Shown piece by piece: positions 4,939 to 64,000 of a DNA stretch of 64,000 bases. The number at the start of each line of letters is the position of its first letter. The stretch's first letter is position 1. Source of the stretch: Octopus vulgaris. Taxonomy: Eukaryota. The notes under the pieces were generated by a model that saw only the letters and a program-made list of their open reading frames with translations, did not search any database and was not told where the DNA came from. The DNA lies in assembly GCA_951406725.2 (NCBI GenBank), contig OX597816.1, forward strand, positions 35,402,001-35,466,000. The letters are read 5' to 3'. The position numbers were made by a program, and so were the translations under genes.

Positions 4939-4989
4939 CTTCAAAAGTATTAGAAGCATTATAAGTATTTCATATAGCAATTACAAGTT

Positions 4990-6012
4990 ATGTTTTGTAC
5001 ATATTTCAGATTTCTCCTAATTCTTTTGATTGCGAAATATGTATCAGCAAACATGTGTAGGGCAGGGAAAAAGAATACCCACAAACCATACCATAATCAT
5101 GAAGAACTACGTTTTGATTTCAAGGAACCGGCAAAAAACAGATTCGCTCGATATGCAAACGGAGGACCAAAACAGCCGTTTGAAATTGTTAGATCTGAAG
5201 CAAAATCGTTGGCACCTAATAACCCTGTAATTATATTTGAATTAGAAATAAAGAACAATATACAGAAATCCATTTTTCTAACGATAAAATCCAAATGTTG
5301 CGCTAAAAAGTTTCAAATGGCAGCCGAGAAAGTAAGTCAAATGGATCACTGTATTTCTATTGTTTTAATCGGGAAACGTAAATACAAAATAAATGCACAA
5401 GAAACTACAACTATAACTCTGTTATATGCTAGTGTTAATTTATTGCTACAGAATTATCAGTTCAAAGGTCGTTGTAAGTTTGATATTATAAGCGAGAAAG
5501 CAGGAGCAGTGATTTCCTGTATGCTTCCGTTTAAAACAAGATCTATATCTAAAGAAGACGAGCCAGCTACCCTAGATAGCTCAGCGGACTCAGGGTATAA
5601 GCTCCAGCATTCGGGTCGCAAATATACAGGTTGGATATGCAACAATGACAATTGCTTGCCAATTGACTGTGCCCAAGCTACAAGTAGTAAGATGAATTTC
5701 TTTGATGGTGAGACTGGGGAATGTATTAGAGCTCCTGCTTGCGCTGCTAATAATACATTTTTCAACATTATGAAGAAACAGTGTCAAAACTATAGATTTA
5801 GCGCAATACAAAATCTGAAAGATGATCGAAATTTTCCCCATAAAGCGCTGCACGAAACTAAATCACCATATGTTGACTTGGAAAGAATTCAAGCAGGGAA
5901 TCTTGAGTATGCTAGTTGCAGTAGCATGTGTCGATCAGCTAAGAGGTACACGAAAATTCCGTCGACAATTATACCTATGTTCGACCGTTGCGCACAAGAA
6001 TCTGGTTGTTAA
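4990..6012 (+). CDS. Intronless 340-aa secreted cysteine-rich protein of unknown function
   Basis: Uninterrupted 1-kb non-repetitive ORF in AT-rich DNA; signal-peptide-like N-terminus (FRFLLILLIAKYVSA); 16 Cys after the signal; AATAAA sites near 6485 and 6568. Confidence 0.8.
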   Translation: MFCTYFRFLLILLIAKYVSANMCRAGKKNTHKPYHNHEELRFDFKEPAKNRFARYANGGPKQPFEIVRSEAKSLAPNNPVIIFELEIKNNIQKSIFLTIKSKCCAKKFQMAAEKVSQMDHCISIVLIGKRKYKINAQETTTITLLYASVNLLLQNYQFKGRCKFDIISEKAGAVISCMLPFKTRSISKEDEPATLDSSADSGYKLQHSGRKYTGWICNNDNCLPIDCAQATSSKMNFFDGETGECIRAPACAANNTFFNIMKKQCQNYRFSAIQNLKDDRNFPHKALHETKSPYVDLERIQAGNLEYASCSSMCRSAKRYTKIPSTIIPMFDRCAQESGC

Positions 6013-34723: not shown

Positions 34724-34766
34724 CCACTACAAATGTTTCATGTCTGCTCCGACAATCTTCAGGTGG
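34724..34766 (-). ncRNA. Minimal type I hammerhead (left arm of palindrome)
   Basis: Reverse complement of 34818-34860. Confidence 0.75.
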
Positions 34767-34817
34767 ATTTTCGATCTTCTAATCAGTAACAAATTTACTG
34801 ATTAGAAGATCGAAAAT

Positions 34818-34860
34818 CCACCTGAAGATTGTCGGAGCAGACATGAAACATTTGTAGTGG
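34818..34860 (+). ncRNA. Minimal type I hammerhead
   Basis: ccac-CTGAAGA-t tgtc ggagca gaca t-GAAA-c attt-GTA-gtgg: stems I, II and III all pair. Confidence 0.8.
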
Positions 34861-37771: not shown

Positions 37772-37814
37772 CCACTACAAATGTTTCATGTCTGCTCCGT
37801 CAATCTTCAGGTGG
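37772..37814 (-). ncRNA. Minimal type I hammerhead (duplicate, one stem II mismatch)
   Basis: Copy of 34724-34766 with gacaatc changed to gtcaatc. Confidence 0.65.
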
Positions 37815-37865
37815 ATTTTCGATCTTCTAATCAGTAACAAATTTACTGATTAGAAGATCGAAAAT

Positions 37866-37908
37866 CCACCTGAAGATTGTCGGAGCAGACATGAAACATT
37901 TGTAGTGG
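37866..37908 (+). ncRNA. Minimal type I hammerhead (duplicate)
   Basis: Same sequence as 34818-34860. Confidence 0.8.
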
Positions 37909-41349: not shown

Positions 41350-42298
41350 ATATATATACCACAAAAACCCGACCAAAGCACAAACACGTTCAACCAAGAG
41401 ATACTAAAAGTACTGAAAGACATCTCCTCCAGCATCACGGTGTTATCCAACACAATTGACGAGATACAGACCTACACCAAGGAAACGCTTGAAGAAGGAA
41501 GACAAACGGAAGAAATAGCAATTGTCCAAATCCTCAATCAGTTATAAAGAACTATAGAAACAGCGATGCTCCAGAAATAGGAGCAAAAATGGAAAGCTGA
41601 ACGAGATAACATCAACCTGCAAAGAGAAATCTCTGCAATCGAAAACACTCTTAAACGTATATGGCACCCAAACTTCACAGCCTGTAAATTTTACTTTTGG
41701 ATCTACAATAAAAATAATAGCAAAGCAGACATATATGAAAAATGGCTTATTTCAATGGTTGAACACAATGGTTGTGTTCAACCATTGATAAATTTATCGC
41801 CTGTGAATATGAAATTCCTTGGAAATTTACACCTACACCATTGGAAATTGTGCATCTATACAAAGGATTAATTCACCCTCTCTGTAATGCTAATAAGCAG
41901 GAATTGAAACCTACCTCGTTGTAATTAACAATGGATAAATTTGCCTTCTGTGAGTATGTAATCCCTCATCATATCTCTGGAAATTCATATATGCACTATG
42001 GATTGGGTCACCTTCTCTGTGATGCTGTTAAGACTTTTTTAAAATTCTGTGATAAGACTGTACATCATCTTTAAAGAACTTTAATGAACTTTTGAAATCT
42101 GTTTATGTTACTTAATTATCTACATTACTTCATGAGTATAGCCTCAACCACTAGGATGTCTAGAGAACTCACATGTATTTTAGCTGATGAGTACGGGACA
42201 CGTTTATATGCTGTAATTTTTGCAACTTTTAATAAAACCTGTCCTTGTATGAAACGATTGTACTAAAAACCTATCCATTCTTGTTGCTTCATTCTCGC
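41350..42298 (+). mobile_element. Internally deleted PLE: N-terminal ORF remnant followed by a terminal repeat with a hammerhead
   Basis: Broken ORF ...LKRIWHPNF...FYFWIYNKNNSKADIYEKWL resembles a PLE N-terminus; hammerhead just before (TA)n. Confidence 0.55.
42178..42268 (+). ncRNA. Type I hammerhead with 60-nt stem II domain
   Basis: ttttag-CTGATGA-gtacgggaca...tgtccttgtat-GAAA-c gatt-GTA-ctaaaa. Confidence 0.85.
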
Positions 42299-52885: not shown

Positions 52886-52990
<105 letters not shown>

Positions 52991-53006
52991 TACATATATA
53001 TATATG

Positions 53007-53099
<93 letters not shown>

Positions 53100-53104
53100 G
53101 TGAT

Positions 53105-54830
53105 ATAAAATCAGAGGCGGCGACGATAGATTACATCGATATAAAGGAAGACGATGTAACCAAGGCTATAGATGAAATGAAAACAGACTCAGCTACTGGC
53201 CCCGATGGATTCCCGGCAATCCTCCTAAAAGCATGTAAGAGAGTCCTAGCAAGACCACTGCAGTTCCTCTTTCAGAGCTTCCTTGCAGCTGGCAAACTTC
53301 CAGGAAAACTGAAGGAAGGTAAAATATGCCCCATTCATAAAGGAGGTAGCAGAGCGGAAACCAAGAACTATAGACCTATCTCTCTGACCTCACACATCAG
53401 CAAGGTCATGGAACGAATAGTCAGAAGGAAGCTAATCACCTTCCTTGAAGAGAATGACTTGCTGCCCGACACCCAACATGGTTTCCGACCAGGGAGAAGC
53501 TGTTTAACTCAGCTCCTACAACACTATGACTGGGTGCTGAAACGGCTGCTCAACCACTCAAATGTGGAAGTGATATATCTCGACTTTGCAAAGGCCTTTG
53601 ATAAAGTCGATCATGGAATGATATGTCACAAACTGCATGATCTCAACATAGTTGGAAAACTGGGAGAATGGCTTCATGACTTTCTGAAGGATAGAAGTCA
53701 GGTGGTAGTAGCCAATGGGGCCACCTCCATTAACACACAAATAGTGAGCGGTGTTCCGCAGGGCACTGTTCTGGGACCACTACTGTTCATAATGGCCCTC
53801 TCAGACATGCCCTCAGCCACGCAGAGCGCCACGATCACAAGTTATGCAGATGATACAAAAGTTTCACAGGCAATACAGAACCCTGAGGACACTAAACAAC
53901 TGCAATGTGAGCTGGACGAAATATACAAGTGGGCTGAAAAGAATATCATGCAGTTCAATGCTGGAAAGTTTCAAGCTTTATACTATCAGCATGCAAAACT
54001 GAATGCAATACCCAATGAATACACTGGACCCGGAGGGATTGCAATCCCAGAGGCACAATCAGTGCGTGACCTGGGTATTCACATGAGTGATGACGCGACC
54101 TTTCATGTACATGTTGCTAAACTGACAATGAAATGTAGACGGCTGGCTGGCTGGATTCTTAGAACCTTTAGAACAAGAGAACAAGAAACCATGATGGTCC
54201 TCTGGAAGACACTTGTCCTAAGCCACTTTGACTATTGCTCTCAGCTATGGTCACCATCCAGTGTCAAGTTAATCACAGAACTTGAGGCGATCCAACGAAG
54301 CTACACAAAGAAGATAGCCTCTATGCAGAATGTAAGCTACTGGGAAAGACTCAAGAGATTAAAATTATATTCCTGGAGCGTAGGCGGGAAAGATATGCCA
54401 TAATATACATCTGGAAGATCCTGGAGGGAAGTGTCCTGAACTTTGGCATCGAGAGTTACGCAAATGCCAGAACTGGGCGCCACTGCGTGGTGCCTAGGAC
54501 TCCAAACCTGCCATCAAGATGTAGGACAAGATTCTGTGATAGCCTGGGCTTCCGAGGCCCACAGCTCTTCAATATCCTCCCGAAGAACCTGAGAGACCTG
54601 CATGGGGTGGATACAGATGTCTTTAAAATGAAGCTGGATCTCTTCCTTTCAGGTGTCCCAGATGAACCAACTTCACGGCGGGAGGGGCAGATGAGGGCAG
54701 CTGCATCGAACTCTCTCATGCACCAAATAGCAGTTGCTAGAAAGCCTCCATGAAGTGAAACCAACTAGCAACACCAAATAGCGGTGCCCCAGCATGGCCA
54801 CAGCTCATAAGCTGAAACTAGAATCAATCA
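53105..54830 (+). mobile_element. 5'-truncated young CR1-like LINE (RT ORF 53177-54403, frameshift near 54375, C-terminus to 54753)
   Basis: GPDG, NYRPISL, QHGFR, YLDFAKAFDKV, GVPQGTVLGP, YADD; 3' UTR tail followed by (AATC)n; inserted in (TA)n. Confidence 0.95.
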
Positions 54831-54877
<47 letters not shown>

Positions 54878-55000
54878 CAATTTAGGAATGACCCTAACAG
54901 GTCATTCGTCCACCAGAAAAGAGCAGCCATAACTCACACCGCCAAGTAGTAGTAATTCAAAAATTAGGTGAAAATTCAAAAACATTTACCCTAATTCATC

Positions 55001-55098
55001 TTTTAGACGTTGCAACGTTTCTGTGTCATTAATGATTAAATTAGCTTAATTAAATTAAATTAAGCTAATCTACCATAGGTTACACTTCATCAGTAAAA
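55001..55098 (-). ncRNA. Type I hammerhead (473-nt family, inverted copy)
   Basis: Reverse complement of 55391-55488. Confidence 0.85.
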
Positions 55099-55390
55099 AC
55101 CTGGGATAGACAAATATACACGAGGCGTCTGTATCGATGCCTAGGGAATATCTGTCTTAAAATTTTCAAGACTGACGTATTCGCGCCAAACTTATCAGCA
55201 GTAAATATAAACTGCCGATTCAATCTCAGAATTATTCAGAAAATTATCAATTAGTCAATTTAGGGTAGCAAAAAATTCAATAGAAATTTATCGCTACCAA
55301 CGGCCTAGTGGAAAAGAGAAAATAGTCAACGACTAAGTATATAAATATAACAATTTAGGAATGACCCTAACAGGTCATTCGTCCCAGGTT

Positions 55391-55488
55391 TTTTACTGAT
55401 GAAGTGTAACCTATGGTAGATTAGCTTAATTTAATTTAATTAAGCTAATTTAATCATTAATGACACAGAAACGTTGCAACGTCTAAAA
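55391..55488 (+). ncRNA. Type I hammerhead (473-nt family), predicted cleavage after GUC at 55483
   Basis: tttta-CTGATGA-a gtgt...acac a-GAAA-cgttgcaac-GTC-taaaa; stem III is the perfect 12-nt palindrome ACGTTGCAACGT. Confidence 0.88.
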
Positions 55489-55863
55489 GATGAATTAGGG
55501 TAAATGTTTTTGAATTTTCACCTAATTTTTGAATTACTACTACTTGGCGGTGTGAGTTATGGCTGCTCTTTCTGGTGGACGAATGACCTGTTAGGGTCAT
55601 TCCTAAATTGTTATATTTATATACTTAGTCGTTGACTATTTTCTCTTTTCCACTAGGCCGTTGGTAGCGATAAATTTCTATTGAATTTTTTGCTACCCTA
55701 AATTGACTAATTGATAATTTTCTGAATAATTCTGAGATTGAATCGGCAGTTTATATTTACTGCTGATAAGTTTGGCGCGAATACGTCAGTCTTGAAAATT
55801 TTAAGACAGATATTCCCTAGGCATCGATACAGACGCCTCGTGTATATTTGTCTATCCCAGGTT

Positions 55864-55961
55864 TTTTACTGATGAAGTGTAACCTATGGTAGATTAGCTT
55901 AATTTAATTTAATTAAGCTAATTTAATCATTAATGACACAGAAACGTTGCAACGTCTAAAA
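55864..55961 (+). ncRNA. Type I hammerhead (473-nt family), GUC at 55954-55956
   Basis: Same motif as 55391-55488. Confidence 0.88.
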
Positions 55962-56337
55962 GATGAATTAGGGTAAATGTTTTTGAATTTTCACCTAATT
56001 TTTGAATTACTACTACTTGGCGGTGTGAGTTATGGCTGCTCTTTCTGGTGGACGAATGACCTGTTAGGGTCATTCCTAAATTGTTATATTTATATACTTA
56101 GTCGTTGACTATTTTCTCTTTTCCACTAGGCCGTTGGTAGCGATAAATTTCTATTGAATTTTTTTGCTACCCTAAATTGACTAATTGATAATTTTCTGAA
56201 TAATTCTGAGATTGAATCGGCAGTTTATATTTACTGCTGATAAGTTTGGCGCGAATACGTCAGTCTTGAAAATTTTAAGACAGATATTCCCTAGGCATCG
56301 ATACAGACGCCTCGTGTATATTTGTCTATCCCAGGTT

Positions 56338-56435
56338 TTTTACTGATGAAGTGTAACCTATGGTAGATTAGCTTAATTTAATTTAATTAAGCTAATTTAA
56401 TCATTAATGACACAGAAACGTTGCAACGTCTAAAA
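56338..56435 (+). ncRNA. Type I hammerhead (473-nt family), GUC at 56428-56430
   Basis: Same motif as 55391-55488. Confidence 0.88.
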
Positions 56436-56835
56436 GATGAATTAGGGTAAATGTTTTTGAATTTTCACCTAATTTTTGAATTACTACTACTTGGCGGTGT
56501 GAGTTATGGCTGCTCTTTCTGGTGGACGAATGACCTGTTAGGGTCATTCCTAAATTGTTATATTTATATACTTAGTCGTTGACTATTTTCTCTTTTCCAG
56601 TAGGCCGTTGGTAGCGATAAATTTCTATTGAATTTTTTTGCTACCCTAAATTGACTAATATATATATATATATATATATATACGCGGGTGGGAAGGGGCT
56701 GGTGACACAATCTTTTCATTCACACATTGAATTTGGTGATACTAGTTGCGGATTCTAGCTCGCTCTGATACTGAGTTGAGTTGATGCCTTCTAGTATCTC
56801 AAAATTCAATATATAATCATTTATGATTATAGTAT

Positions 56836-56936
56836 TCTACGCTGAAGAGAAAAGAAGTTCTTGGTAAGATAGAATTATTTAATATTTAATTCTTATGCTT
56901 TCCTAAAAACTTGATTTCGAAACGTACGTCCGTAGA
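56836..56936 (+). ncRNA. Type I hammerhead (593-nt family), GUC at 56928-56930
   Basis: tctacg-CTGAAGA-gaaa...tttc-GAAA-cgtac-GTC-cgtaga; stem III palindrome ACGTACGT. Confidence 0.9.
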
Positions 56937-57428
56937 TAACTTAAAATTGTATGATAGTTTGCCGTCAATTCATTCCCTCTTACCTGTTTGTGTCTGCCTT
57001 CCAATTGCTGTTTTTACTGAGATCTCCTTTTTAGTAGAAGAAATAGCTATAACTCTTTGACTGCTATTTCTAAATTCGGTATGTGGTAAGGCAATTCGTT
57101 GCCAAACCCTTTATTGCTTAGTATTACTTAAATTTTCCTCGAATGAGGCTTTTACATGCCGAAGACTACTTGGTGTAATTGATAATTATTCCAAATTAAT
57201 TAATTTCACCCTTCATTATTACGGATAACCATATTTTATCTCAGTAGATGACCATAGCATCTTGTTTTGTCTACACGCGGGTGGGAAGGGGCTGGTGACA
57301 CAATCTTTTCATTCACACATTGAATTTGGTGATACTAGTTGCGGATTCTAGCTCGCTCTGATACTGAGTTGAGTTGATGCCTTCTAGCATCTCAAAATTC
57401 AATATATAATCATTTATGATTATAGTAT

Positions 57429-57529
57429 TCTACGCTGAAGAGAAAAGAAGTTCTTGGTAAGATAGAATTATTTAATATTTAATTCTTATGCTTTCCTAAA
57501 AACTTGATTTCGAAACGTACGTCCGTAGA
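57429..57529 (+). ncRNA. Type I hammerhead (593-nt family), GUC at 57521-57523
   Basis: Same motif as 56836-56936. Confidence 0.9.
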
Positions 57530-57714
57530 TAACTTAAAATTGTATGATAGATTGCCGTCAATTCATTCCCTCTTACCTGTTTGTGTCTGCCTTCCAATTG
57601 CTGTTTTTACTGAGATCTCCCTTTTTAGTAGAAGAAATAGCTATAACTCTTTGACTGCTATTTCTAAATTCGGTATGTGGTAAGGCAATTCGTTGCCAAA
57701 CCCTTTATTGCTTA

Positions 57715-57772
<58 letters not shown>

Positions 57773-57775
<3 letters not shown>

Positions 57776-57965
57776 GGTCCCGGGTTGATTCGGGGTTAAC
57801 CACAATAAGTAAGGTACTCAATACATAGCAGAGTAAAATTAATTTATTATATAGAAGGAGCTTCTACAGGACTAGTACTGTTTCATTCAAGAGAAATCTT
57901 CAGAGCTTCCTGAAGATTTCTCTTGAATGAAACAGTACTAGTCCTGTAGAAGCTCCTTCTATATA

Positions 57966-58020: not shown

Positions 58021-59910
58021 AGCATGCATGTAGAGACACATGTATATATCGGTTTTAAATGTAGTTATAAAGTAGTCTGAAACATCTTTTTAGTGTTTTA
58101 TATTTTATTTAATTGCAGAATCCGACTGTGCTATGCATTTAGTCAGCGATAACGAAATTAAATGAGTTTTCTATATTCCAATTCGTTCAAAGCGATACAA
58201 TGTTAGACGCCGATTTGGAAACAAAAATCTTTTATTCCCCTAACATTTTGCTTATTTCTGCAAAAAATGTTAGTCCGACTATGTACATGGTTCCATTTAA
58301 TGATAGCAATTACGTATATTATGTATGATAACTTGCAGACGAATTATTTTCTCTCAGAAACTATAATGTCATTAAGGAAGTACTCTTACTATAATCATTA
58401 AAAAATAATTACATTACAATTTACTGCTATGAAATTAATTAATATAACCAATTATCAATTATCTGAAATATGTATATGTAAATATATCTCGAAGATACAA
58501 TTTATATCTTAAAGTAACGTGTGGCATTTTAATATCAGTGCCTTAGATTATATATATATATACATAACAAAGTGGAGTTGTGGGGTACCGCACGAGTGGA
58601 ATTATATACGAAAGGAGGTTCGAAAATGCAATTTGAAAGATGTTTATTTACTTTACCGGTTTCACTCTTTGGAAAAAGATTGTCAAAAGTAACATGTAGA
58701 AGTTTGGTTATGTTAATTATTGGTTGTTGCAAATTGCTACGTTACATATATACAGTCTTTGGTAACAGGGACATGTTAAGGACATGTTAAGGACAAGTTC
58801 CTTAAAATATTGGGCACAAAGATTACTACATAAATAATCGTTCTCAAGGACATGCTTGAGATAGTTTCCAGAAGGAATTGATATTGGTATTGTATCTGTA
58901 TATTCAGATATGCACATAATATTGGTTGACACAGAGTACTATAATTCATATAAATATACATTCTTTGGTGACAAGAGTATGTTGAGAATATAAAAAAAGT
59001 TTAACAAGCTCATTGAAATAATGGGCACAAAAGATTACAACAAATATATTATACAACTCAAGATAATTTCTAGGAGAAATTATAAAAAAAGTTCAGTATA
59101 CACGTACAGAATATTATGAGTTCAAAAAGATTTACATTATAATAGTGGTGAAGCTAAAACTGACCTGTCCGTTTAAGGAGAAATGTGGAACTGAAAAGAA
59201 TGTGCCTTTTTCTTTTTTTGTCTCTCCTTCAAGCATCAATGATTTTGGGGTCACGATGGGGGTGAGTGTTTGTATCTTTGTGTGTGTGTGTGTGTGCGTG
59301 CATACATACATATGTGGTGTGAATAGATGTGTCTGTAATATCTGGTAGGATGGTGTGACCGTTTGTCAACCGCTTGTGTTGTTGTCTTGGTGTTGTGTGT
59401 GTGTGTGTGTGTATATGTATGTATGTGTGTGGATGGCATTTGACATGGTGCTGAGTGTGTATATGTGTATATGTATGGAAGTGAGATTGGTGTGAGTGTG
59501 TGTGTCCTTCTGTGTGTGCATATATATGTATACATGAGTTTGTGTGTATGTGGGGTCTGTTTTTGATTGGTTCCAGGGTGGTGTAAATAGATGTGTGTTA
59601 TTTAAAGAATTTTTGGGGGTAGGATGGTGTGTGTATATGTGTGCCCGTTTGTGTGTGTGTGTATGTGTGTGGTTAATGTCTACCAGTGTGTTTCGTGTGC
59701 GTTAGTGTGTATGTGTTTGTTCGCATGTGTGTCCATGTCTGTTGGGTGTATCCGTGTTGGGTGCATGCGTGTATATGCATCTTGCGTGTGGTGTGTTGGT
59801 ATTGAGCATGTGCTTGTGTGTGTGCGTACACACGATGTGGGTGCACGCGTCTTTGTGTGTGTATATACATGCATACATGTGTCTACGCGTATGTGAGGGC
59901 CATACATACG

Positions 59911-60823: not shown

Positions 60824-63800
60824 TTAGAGTATGTTTTGTTGTGGTCTGTATTTTTGAATAAGATTATTTTCCCTATTTATTCGTGTTTGGTCTGTGGTGT
60901 TGTCCGAGCATTTGTATAGTGGGTAGACTAAGAATTCGGGAGACTTATTGTGTGCACAGAGGCCTAAGTGTCCACTAAGCGGTATTTCTCTTGTGGAGGG
61001 GTCCCTCAGTTGTTGGCGGTGAACTGTCATTCTTTCTCTGAGGATAAGGCTCGTTTGCCCTATGTAGTGTTCGTGGCACCCTTCACACCTTATGAGGTAG
61101 AGTAAATTTTTTGATGCGCACGTGAAATTATTTTTTACGATGAATGTGTGTCCCGACCGGATCTTGTACGTCGATCCCTCAATGAGGTGGATGCAAGTCC
61201 TGCAGTTGGGACGACCACATTTTTTGACGGTGGGCGGTGGGTTTGTGTTGTGTAATTTTGCGTTGGTGAGGAGGTTTTTTAGGGATTTAGGTTGTCTCTT
61301 ACTTTTTATTATTTTATGAGCTGCCAGTAATTTTTGTAGGCGTGGGTCTTGATTTAGCTGTGGAATATTGTTGTATATAATAGTGTAAGCTCCTGCATTT
61401 CTTGGGTTGTGTGTTCAGAGATAGGGGAGGCTATTTACTGTACTGTGGATGTGTTTAGGTTTTCGTAAGTCTTGAGTTTTAATTGATTTGCCCCGTTCTT
61501 ATCCGTTGTCCACTAGTGATGTCGGGTAATGTCCTTCGAGAAGAATTGCCCTTAGTTCCCGAAGTCTTCTATTTCGTGTTGTGTCATTTGGGACAATTGT
61601 GCAGATTCTTCTGGCTAAGTTGAAGGGGATATTTGTCTTTGTGTGTTTTGGGTGATTGTAGGTGAATAGATGGTATTGTTTAGAGTCAGTGGGTTTGTAA
61701 TGGATGTCAGTTTCAATGTTCACGCCCTTTTTAATGATTAGAATGTCAAGAAAGTGAGTTGGTCCTGACAATATTCCATTGTGAATTGAATGTGGTTATT
61801 TACACTGTTGATAAGGTTTTTGAAGTCAATAAGTTGGTCGAGTGTGTGGGACCATAGGATGAGGCAATTATCTACGTAGCGTTTCCAGTTCCCCAACAGG
61901 TATTTGTGGAAAGACTGGCCGTACTTATATTTGGATTTTTCATAAATATGTGATAGGCCATCACCAGGTTTGCATAGGTAGGGGCAACTTTCGTACCCAT
62001 TGCAATTCCTGAAACCTGTCTGTAAGTGTTATTATTGAAATTCATGAAGTTGTTTTGCAGAATAAATTTGAGCCCCTCAATGATGAATTCTTTTTTTATT
62101 CTTCCCGGGATCTCATTGGGATATTTATCCAGCCAGAATTTAATGGCTTCCAGTCTATATTCATGTGGGATTGTGGTGTAAAGGTTTATTACATGAAAGG
62201 GAACGATTAAAGTGTCTTTATCGGTATGTTTGGGGAGATGATTTAATTGGTCCAGGTCATCTCTTACAATGCTTGGAATGTGTTTCAGTATTGGTTTTAG
62301 GATGATATCGATAAATTTGCTAAGTCTGTGTGTTTCACAACTTGGGCCAGCCACTATTGGTCTCAGTTTGAGATCAGTGGGATGTGGTATAGTGATGCAG
62401 GTTGAAGTGGACTTTTTGCAAGCTTCTGTGATAATTTCACTCTTGTGTATTTTTGGAAGCCCATAGAGTGTGCTGGTTTTGCAATTAAAGTTTGTTATGA
62501 AGTCGCATTCCTTTGATGTTAAGTCATTCCGGTGTTGGTAAATGAGTGCCTTCAGTTTGGTCGTTGTTTTGGATTGCTGGTAGTCGACTACTCTTCCATA
62601 GTATGTAGTATCCTCTAAAAGGTGAGATACAGAGTTTTTATATTGCTCAGTATTCATGATAACGACCGTACTACCCGTATCTGCTTCCTTTATTGTGACG
62701 TCATGATTGTCTCGTAGCGTATGGATGATTTCCCATTCTCTTTTACTGGTGTTGGGTTTGGGTTTAGGTTGTGGAAGTTCACCATAAGGGAAGTTTGAGA
62801 TGTAATCGCAAAATTTGTCTCAGGTTTTGTTTTTGCCTTTTATGGGATTATAGCTGCTTTTGTTACGGACCATTGATTCGTCGTTATTATTAGTTTCTTT
62901 GTCAAAAAATTCCTCTGTGAGGAGTAATTTTCTGCAAAATGTGAGATGTCATCCTGTATTTCCCTCAGGTTAGGGTATTTCGGAGTTGGGGTGAATTTTA
63001 GTCCTTTTGAAAGGATTTTTATTTGTGGTGTCGGCAGATTTAGGTTAGAGAGATTCACTATTTTTGGTTTTTCGGGGTTGGTATCTACCATCTGGTGTCG
63101 TGGAAACTGATGCCCTTGCCTAAAAGAGGAATCCTGGGGATTCTTCTATCTGCGGTATTTTGCTGTGTGTGGTTCTTTTCCCCGTTGAAATGTTGTCTGT
63201 TGAAGAGGTTTGGGTTGTTCCAGAGTCTGGGTTGTTGGTGTGGCCTCCTGGAAGAGTTTTGGTTACTCCAGGGTCTGGGTTGTTTGTCCTGGGTGTAATG
63301 TTGGTTCCTTAGAGTGGGTTGGAAAACACATTCATGGTTTAGAAGGGAATTGTTATATGTTGGGAGAGAACTGAGTTTGGAACGGTTTGGGTTGGAATCT
63401 ACAATCATAGTTCAGAGATAGGTTTCTAAGTGATGGGTAGGATCTCCGATCCTGGAACGGTTCTTGTGTGTGTTGGGGTCTACATTGTCTGGTAAAGTTT
63501 TGTCTTGTGTTGGTGGGTGTCTCGTTTTTTTTGATGGGATTGTAGTGCTGACTGTAAGTTCTGTTTTTGTTGTCAATGTTAGGGGTGGTGTGTGTTCGGT
63601 GTTTTGTGATTTGTTTTCTTTGTTCTTGGTGAGGGGTGTGAGTTGAAGTTGATATTTTAAAATATGGGTTGCTTGAATGGTGTTCATTTTTTAACTCTGT
63701 TTCATAATTCGCGAACCAGCTGTTTTTTTCCATTCGCTGGAGGGATGTTAGTTCTTCATCCTCGCAGTTTTTTCTCCAGAGATTGGTTTTATCAAGGAGT

Positions 63801-64000
63801 ACTCCTTCACAGTGTTTGAGATTTCAATCTGCATTTGATTGTCAAGGCTCTTGAATTTTTCTTCACTAGCGTTGGCTCTGAGCCGCAAAAGTTCTACTTC
63901 CGTTTTGAATTTTTCGAAAGCTAGTTTCTCCCTGAGGTTTGTTTTGATTTTCTGGTTCATTTTGGATGGGCTTTATTTGTAGTTTTCTGGGTAGGATGAT
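60824..64000 (-). mobile_element. Penelope-like element (RT, Cys-rich linker, GIY-YIG endonuclease; Neptune-like), frameshifted, runs off the window end
   Basis: LSKGLKFTPTP, YGLPKIHKS, LRPIVAG, GIAMGTKVAPTYANL, RYVDNCL, TDIHYKPTD, CGRPNCRTC, LLYLIRCEGCHEHYIGQT, RENNLIQKY. Confidence 0.93.

Follow-up and report, generated by a model that had tools for sequence, protein, structure and literature searches.

Results

Two identical hammerhead motifs in an insertion between TA tracts

The window, a 64,000-nt stretch of the Octopus vulgaris genome, contains a cluster of three hammerhead-bearing repeats with (TA)n between them (Table 1). The central insertion has a length of 1,036 nt, or 1.75 units of 593 nt, and so carries two ribozyme motifs but only one full unit. 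In each motif the elements follow the order TCTACG, CTGAAGA, stem II, GAA, ACGTACGT, C and CGTAGA, and the CTGAAGA cores start at 56842 and 57435. Stem II spans 70 nt and is G-C-closed (GAAA..TTTC); stem III is the palindrome ACGTACGT, directly followed by the C of the predicted cut site. The two passes of the insertion differ by two substitutions in 419 compared positions and by a 1-nt insertion. Its 3′ end lies at the main end site of the family (unit position ~194) and is followed by TA. The first-pass annotation had described a second hammerhead family of the same design as its 473-nt neighbour, and this description was borne out: both motifs are as described, 593 nt apart, and 23 nt of TA lead to the 473-nt array. 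An Rfam scan of the whole window gave no match at the gathering score, hammerhead families included, likely because stem II is as long as 70 nt.

Table 1. Features of the insertion cluster, in positions of the window (cut, predicted self-cleavage site).
Feature	Position	Strand	Description
473/474-nt hammerhead family	54877..56659		inverted arm 54877-55384, direct arm 55382-56659
(TA)n spacer, 473-nt array to 593-nt insertion	56660..56682		23 nt
593-nt family insertion	56683..57718	+	1.75 units; 5′ truncation at unit position 345
Type I hammerhead motif 1	56836..56936	+	predicted cut after C56930
Motif 1, stem I and core	56836-41/56931-36; CUGAAGA 56842-48	+	sequence
Motif 1, stems II and III	stem II 56849-918; palindromic stem III 56922-29	+	sequence
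Cut-to-cut unit, predicted monomer RNA	56931..57523	+	593 nt, 34% GC
Site P1 in full unit	57090..57130	+	hairpin, ACCCT (57106), commonest genomic 3′ end, unit positions 188-200
Site P2 in full unit	57171..57234	+	hairpin, second ACCCT (57208), second 3′ end, unit positions 289-304
Type I hammerhead motif 2	57429..57529	+	identical to motif 1; predicted cut after C57523
(TA)n tract 3′ of 593-nt insertion, before third element	57719..57772		~54 nt
188-nt fold-back element	57773..57960 or 57971		short hammerhead-like core (57910); separate family

The unit lacks a protein-coding ORF, unlike an autonomous Penelope-like element with its reverse transcriptase (RT) and GIY-YIG ORF; the longest stop-free frame, determined on the tripled unit, comprises 56 codons.

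A young dispersed family

The genome (2.8 Gb in 227 contigs) was searched with the unit. This gave 1,991 first-look candidates, 40 of which were scored and yielded 182 matches on many contigs, with 95-100% identity among the matches listed. The 593-nt family is a young, dispersed multicopy family and forms no single satellite block. At all 67 loci examined, units follow each other head to tail without anything in between; arms hold up to six cut sites and reach 3.5 kb. The annotation had also proposed that a retrozyme-type family was active recently and has a single unit of 593 nt from cut to cut, which agrees with the young dispersed copies and with the Penelope-type insertion anatomy described below.

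The exact pattern CTGAAGA-N60-80-GAAACGTACGTC matched 264 times in the genome and CTGATGA-N40-90-GAAACGTACGTC 456 times, compared with one match for each reversed control, so the hammerhead motifs occur beyond chance. Among the matches are sister subfamilies with units of 582-587 and 601-602 nt and roughly 75-95% identity, which are older than the 593-nt family. Three remoter families (L152, L266 and L274), each with its own hammerhead-like motifs, score higher in alignment with the unit than any of 60 shuffled sequences. In the L152 family, which was found via its 3′ motif, stem I reads GTTGCG/CGTAAC and stem III ACGCGT. The L266 family (L266:1211-1875; 1,848 candidates) has a 549-nt unit, a U3-A8 core and two end sites of its own, and the L274 family (L274:748-1405) is a related hammerhead repeat with a 557-nt unit.

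At least half of the sampled words of the 593-nt family are present in 20 public sequencing runs (9 studies, 4 organism labels). Contigs of four runs from four studies (three guessed to be RNA, one of unknown kind) cover 30 of 30 unit bins as well as the end-to-start joint; since a tandem array or DNA yields the same joint, these contigs carry no weight as expression evidence.

Conservation and folding of the ribozyme

The first-pass annotation had named missing conservation or covariation of the stems among other genomic copies as the result that would speak against it; stems I and II do covary. In a 22-pair structure across 32 distinct haplotypes, 98.3% of the cells were paired and 4 of the 22 pairs were changed on both sides, counts that are inflated by kinship among the haplotypes, with few independent events behind the covariation. 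None of 500 shuffled controls scored as high, and slid structures paired at only 18-49%. Compensatory changes include U-A to C-G in stem I and, twice, A-U to G-C in stem II. In the sister copies the core and stem III were set by the search pattern, so that covariation counts for stems I and II only. Both of these stems appear to be kept by covariation.

The sequence ACGUACGU alone forms no hairpin in folding calculations but pairs with itself at -9.8 kcal/mol. The stem III variant ACGUGCGU, found at 40 of 184 joins, still self-pairs, through G-U, at -8.8 kcal/mol. A stem III that pairs with a second copy and forms no hairpin of its own would fit dimeric cleavage, as described for short palindromic stems III (PMC4209133; PMC7229834). 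The minimum free energy fold of the isolated ribozyme region recovered stems I and II, missed stem III, and was not significant (z = -1.07). Self-cleavage of the 593-nt hammerhead after 56930 and 57523 is a prediction; in a recent survey, one of nine predicted retrozymes was reported to cut in vitro (bioRxiv 10.64898/2026.07.22.740005).

Insertions end at two fixed sites, used one of each

Insertion ends were mapped in two differently chosen sets of loci, both of which favour copies with an intact ribozyme. Set 1 comprises 39 loci from the unit search (40 scored minus one duplicate, L031, identical with L032), the locus of the window included. Set 2 comprises 28 loci chosen among the first 100 listed CTGAAGA-pattern matches, one (L288) having been dropped because it runs off the fetched stretch. 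One locus (L049) was left unclassified by the script.

TA borders 97 of 102 3′ ends and 24 of 30 free 5′ ends across 66 loci. A target-site duplication, which in animal non-LTR retrozymes exceeds 4 bp where there is one, would be hidden because both flanks are (TA)n at most loci. Insertions at L045:2344-3500 and L287:1520-2297 sit in (GATA)n/(CTAT)n instead of (TA)n, with matching bases at the usual 3′ sites. Two end sites are used: P1, where most 3′ ends lie 188-200 nt downstream of the cut, and P2, 289-304 nt downstream of it. A predicted hairpin and ACCCT come shortly before either site. We infer that P1 and P2 are the two reverse-transcription starts of the family; the interval between them forms a ‘tail’ of ~100 nt.

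One-ended insertions (n = 28) use P1 in 20 cases, P2 in 6 and another position in 2. Back-to-back insertions (n = 37) combine one P1 with one P2 end in 29 cases, against an expected fraction of 0.41 (p = 3.5e-6). The proportion is similar in both sets (17/22 and 12/15). By automated call the rule is broken at 8 of the 37 two-ended loci, with two P1 ends in one case, two P2 ends in none and one other end in seven. Partial tandems and an inverted 5′-truncated arm are typical of the family, and the tail is present at one end only in those 29 two-ended loci.

The 5′ ends are scattered. Within 18 nt around the cut, 6 of 101 were found compared with 3.1 expected (p = 0.09). Exact matches that lack the C before the cut number five genome-wide: two substitutions, two altered joins and one arm starting there.

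Both arms derive from one unit-length haplotype

Divergence between units is 0.31% for 223 pairs from the same arm, 0.50% for 154 pairs from opposite arms and 1.99% for units of different loci, and assembly polishing could have smoothed the arrays and raised this apparent uniformity. More than half of the between-arm differences (121 of 232) are supplied by a single locus, L223. Of 22 two-arm loci, 21 lack any site that tells the arms apart, and all 184 cut-site joins have the same length without an indel. Low divergence within loci, missing arm-diagnostic sites and indel-free joins together indicate that every insertion, with both its arms, goes back to a single haplotype one unit long.

In agreement with this, 38 of 39 loci carry essentially one haplotype throughout. 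Variant calls fixed in all units of a locus number 234 (17 of them locus-private, of which 10 span both arms, at 8 loci). Among the variants seen in a single unit, 78 of 87 occur nowhere else in the set and 9 recur at another locus. The one mosaic of several haplotypes is L223 (G000:C5:14400200-14408200), an 11-unit back-to-back array mixing family haplotypes, for which template switching, gene conversion and assembly noise are alternative explanations; five other loci contribute six more partial variants. On the sequence evidence, the cut site of the unit appears to have been read through without error during copying. A ligated circle would be the simplest template for such insertions, and the indel-free joins also fit an uncut multimer.

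Penelope-type elements in the same genome

Many intact Penelope-type frames are present in the genome (776, 784 and 781 aa). They carry a CX4CxxC linker and a GIY-YIG domain and match the Neptune/Nematis layout as described in PMC8557442. The intact Neptune-type elements end in (TA)n with either a short end or an end tailed by ~45 nt, compared with a tail of ~100 nt in the 593-nt family. An inverted arm was found in 9 of the 16 copies checked, and all nine combine one short with one tailed end. The 3′ regions of Neptune-type elements (L104, L113, L188-L192) contain hammerhead-like motifs with a U3-A8 core (TTGACAA, TTGATAA) and a 6-nt palindromic stem III (ACCGGT, ACATGT), ~100 nt before the short end; one intact family reads GCAA where GAAA is expected.

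The searches for these elements scored 126 of 9,904 candidates for the RT and 150 of 6,136 for the endonuclease. When the unit was compared by blastn with 20 ten-kb loci at Penelope-type RT matches and with 30 endonuclease loci, only nearby retrozyme-like insertions were hit. Local alignment of the unit with the 3′ regions of the three intact families was no better than chance (35, 12 and 34 of 60 shuffles as high). At 159 loci of the 593-nt and related families, searched with a Neptune query only, the unit is never joined to the start of a Neptune-like ORF. A Neptune-like coding fragment lies near six of them, five at a distance of 442-926 nt across a TA run and one joining in mid-ORF. The annotation had considered the arrays as possible pLTRs linked to Penelope ORFs; such linkage was not found with this query, and none of the three intact families resembles the unit.

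Purified Penelope protein was reported to cut and extend both target strands and to start reverse transcription at two sites inside the RNA, one at either border of the tail; insertion did not need ribozyme cutting, and uncut RNA was the main template (PMC11167929). It is well supported that the helper of the 593-nt family belongs to the Penelope-like class, with no sequence match among the three intact families.

Neighbouring elements

The ends of the 473-nt array lie 129 and 229 nt beyond its own cut site, and its family has 1,508 first-look candidates. Homology of the 473-nt and 593-nt units was rejected (6 of 60 shuffles as high), as was functional linkage of the two arrays: the families are independent and each is mostly found alone. 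The 188-nt fold-back element has a 7-bp stem I, a 12-nt stem II and a GUA site; near-identical copies were found at 40 scored of 706 first-look candidate loci, and it adjoins the 593-nt family also at L035 and L036.

The annotation had pointed to the placement beside the 473-nt array. This placement is not special, since a different TA-targeted element, with TA in between, likewise adjoins the family at 4 of 66 other loci (within ~55 nt at 3 of 38 other set-1 loci and 1 of 28 set-2 loci). A relative of the 593-nt family abuts 2 of 11 other 473-nt loci. The adjacency reflects independent insertions into the same kind of (TA)n target, perhaps into preferred tracts. Neighbours were seen in 1, 2 and 2 cases against 0.16, 0.08 and 0.04 expected, rough values that derive from first-look counts and the TA density of one window, which hints that neighbours in TA tracts are more frequent than random. 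A single substituted site across the arms of the 473-nt array, compared with the two in the 593-nt insertion, is a weak hint that the array is the younger of the two.

Further elements of the window were recorded. A decayed Neptune-type element with RT and GIY-YIG pieces (60827-63823, minus strand) shows ~92% amino acid identity to the 776-aa copies, and a 3′-end fragment of the Neptune type lies at 58560-58800 (minus strand). A LINE-type RT fragment (52988-54750, plus strand; RVT_1, E = 7.8e-31) is located directly left of the first TA tract of the cluster. More hammerhead-like motifs occur at 42184 (plus strand), 34762-34822 and 37810-37870, two as mirror-image pairs. An open frame of 344 codons with several cysteines (4978-6009, plus strand) had no usable match in a protein atlas. 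When the flanks were scanned de novo for hammerheads, the neighbours already described were not recovered, and the result was discarded.

Discussion

In our reading, 56683..57718 is a copy of a young, dispersed non-coding hammerhead retrozyme that was likely copied in trans by a Penelope-like RT/endonuclease, probably from a circular RNA of unit length. The array would be transcribed, and two hammerheads, paired via the self-complementary stem III, would excise a 593-nt RNA that a host ligase could close into a circle. A Penelope-type protein would then cut (TA)n and start reverse transcription inside the RNA, past a hairpin and ACCCU. This internal start in (TA)n is indicated by the genomic 3′ ends at two fixed sites followed by TA. 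Copying would roll beyond the ribozyme join and produce about six units at most, with scattered 5′ ends. Where both cut strands prime, one at each site, a back-to-back insertion would result. Rolling and two-strand priming are indicated by the one-of-each rule, the haplotype common to both arms and the precise joins.

The source of the template is where other explanations have to be weighed. With the same helper and start sites, an uncut multimeric donor transcript could serve as template, in which case the ribozyme would be uninvolved and a circle unneeded. The indel-free joins and the mosaic locus L223 fit such a template, uncut RNA is the main substrate of purified Penelope protein (PMC11167929), and a 2-bp stem III may cut poorly (PMC4209133). 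However, daughters would then be no longer than their donors, yet arms reach 3.5 kb; new variants mostly occur either in every unit of their locus or in a single unit of a single locus, as a one-unit bottleneck predicts, and the stems are retained by compensatory change. We therefore regard an uncut template as improbable, if worth keeping in mind. Alternatively, the reverse transcriptase might jump end to end between linear ribozyme monomers and so build the arrays. The haplotype mixture in L223, the two copies with altered cut-site sequence, the arm that begins exactly at the cut and the slight excess of 5′ ends around it could be taken as traces of this process. It would be expected to leave indels at joins and a pile-up of 5′ ends at the cut, but neither is seen, and all loci but one are essentially single-haplotype, which makes linear monomers very unlikely.

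Two further explanations concern the arrays themselves. They could be orphaned pLTRs of another autonomous Penelope-like element, for example of the Hydra clade, whose elements are described with canonical hammerheads and a (TA)n target; the anatomy is the same as that of pLTRs (PMC8557442), and the scored RT and endonuclease candidates were obtained without a Hydra query. Since units abut head to tail with nothing interposed in 67 loci, and coding fragments found with the Neptune query are so rare and mostly lie across a TA run, we give this origin little credence. Local amplification of single inserted units as a satellite by unequal crossover, a model put forward by Li et al. (bioRxiv 10.64898/2026.07.22.740005), would also give uniform arrays, and at L033 two neighbouring units have two private variants in common. 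On the other hand, both inverted arms are often multi-unit, 3′ ends are fixed while 5′ ends are scattered, and such loci are internally less than 1% diverged, so that satellite amplification seems hardly credible as the source of the family.

Returning to copying in trans from a circle, we tentatively propose that a Penelope dimer copies one 593-nt circle simultaneously from both TA cut ends, with one subunit at each of the fixed sites ~100 nt apart, and that it reads the hairpin-plus-ACCCU and not a common sequence. A clan of at least four homologous retrozyme families would keep both sites. This proposal is possible but somewhat less likely than not to hold in full; if true, the two sites would be the signal through which ribozyme circles are recognised by Penelope enzymes and exploit them.

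Assignment to the animal non-LTR retrozymes can be made with high confidence. As far as sequence can tell, the element conforms to their published description (PMC7229834; PMC7761336): it shares with them non-coding tandem units, one type I hammerhead per unit, a short palindromic stem III, a GC content under 45-50%, dispersed copies and co-occurring Penelope-like elements. It differs in its stem II, 70 nt compared with about 4 bp with a loop. The length of 593 nt, which the annotation had noted as longer than in other animal retrozymes (mostly a few hundred nt), exceeds the 170-400 nt given for animal non-LTR retrozymes (Cervera and de la Pena 2020, PMC7229834) but falls inside the 51-972 bp of the retrozyme families of Li, Clavereau and Pollet (2026, bioRxiv 10.64898/2026.07.22.740005), which average 650 bp in ray-finned fish and, in the sampling described there, include no mollusc. 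The strict (TA)n target and the two fixed 3′ ends go beyond what we found described in these two sources (PMC7229834; bioRxiv 10.64898/2026.07.22.740005). Linear and circular monomer RNAs, a trait of animal non-LTR retrozymes, are predicted for the 593-nt family from its genomic copies. As it is one of many alike in the genome, the locus is a further example and not a new kind. In the literature accessible to us on octopus hammerhead ribozymes, on retrozymes and microsatellites and on Penelope twin priming, a scope outside which most subscription papers fall, neither the family nor the one-of-each rule was found, and the main text of PMC13282606 does not mention ribozymes.

Earlier arguments that Penelope-like enzymes mobilise animal retrozymes drew on co-occurrence and on similarity of terminal repeats (PMC7229834; bioRxiv 10.64898/2026.07.22.740005). 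In the present case, a non-coding family follows at its insertion ends the rule of intact Penelope-type elements in the same genome, with the two start sites mapped to a few bases. Like the Neptune, Naiad and Hydra-type elements described by Craig et al. (2021, PMC8557442), the family shows partial tandems, an inverted 5′-truncated copy, a tail at one end, a (TA)n target and a hammerhead upstream of the 3′ end. Unlike these endonuclease-bearing elements, it has no ORF, and its tail measures ~100 nt instead of 30-40 nt. The three intact Neptune-type families found here have hammerhead-like cores of the U3-A8 type, the 593-nt family has C3-G8, and they show no sequence similarity to it. The non-coding Chlamys MRC1 (PMC8557442) also forms head-to-tail multicopy insertions, and elements of its type are described as moved by a Penelope-like element. 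These non-autonomous Chlamys elements have 3′ sequence in common with their helper and are mostly without hammerheads (PMC8557442), in contrast to the 593-nt family, which has a hammerhead and no helper match among the three Neptune-type families.

The closest mechanistic parallel is offered by the PAc Poseidon element in vitro (Frangieh et al. 2024, PMC11167929). It likewise has two internal starts that bound the tail, an AT-rich target, cutting and extension of both strands and a ribozyme cut site upstream of the starts, properties deduced for the 593-nt family from its genomic copies. PAc differs in being autonomous, and it does not need its ribozyme to insert in vitro (PMC11167929). The one-of-each use of two sites is seen here in genomic copies of a non-coding RNA, compared with the in vitro setting of PAc. 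The intact helper candidates of 776-784 aa, together with the existing in vitro assay (PMC11167929), make the question of a circular template addressable.
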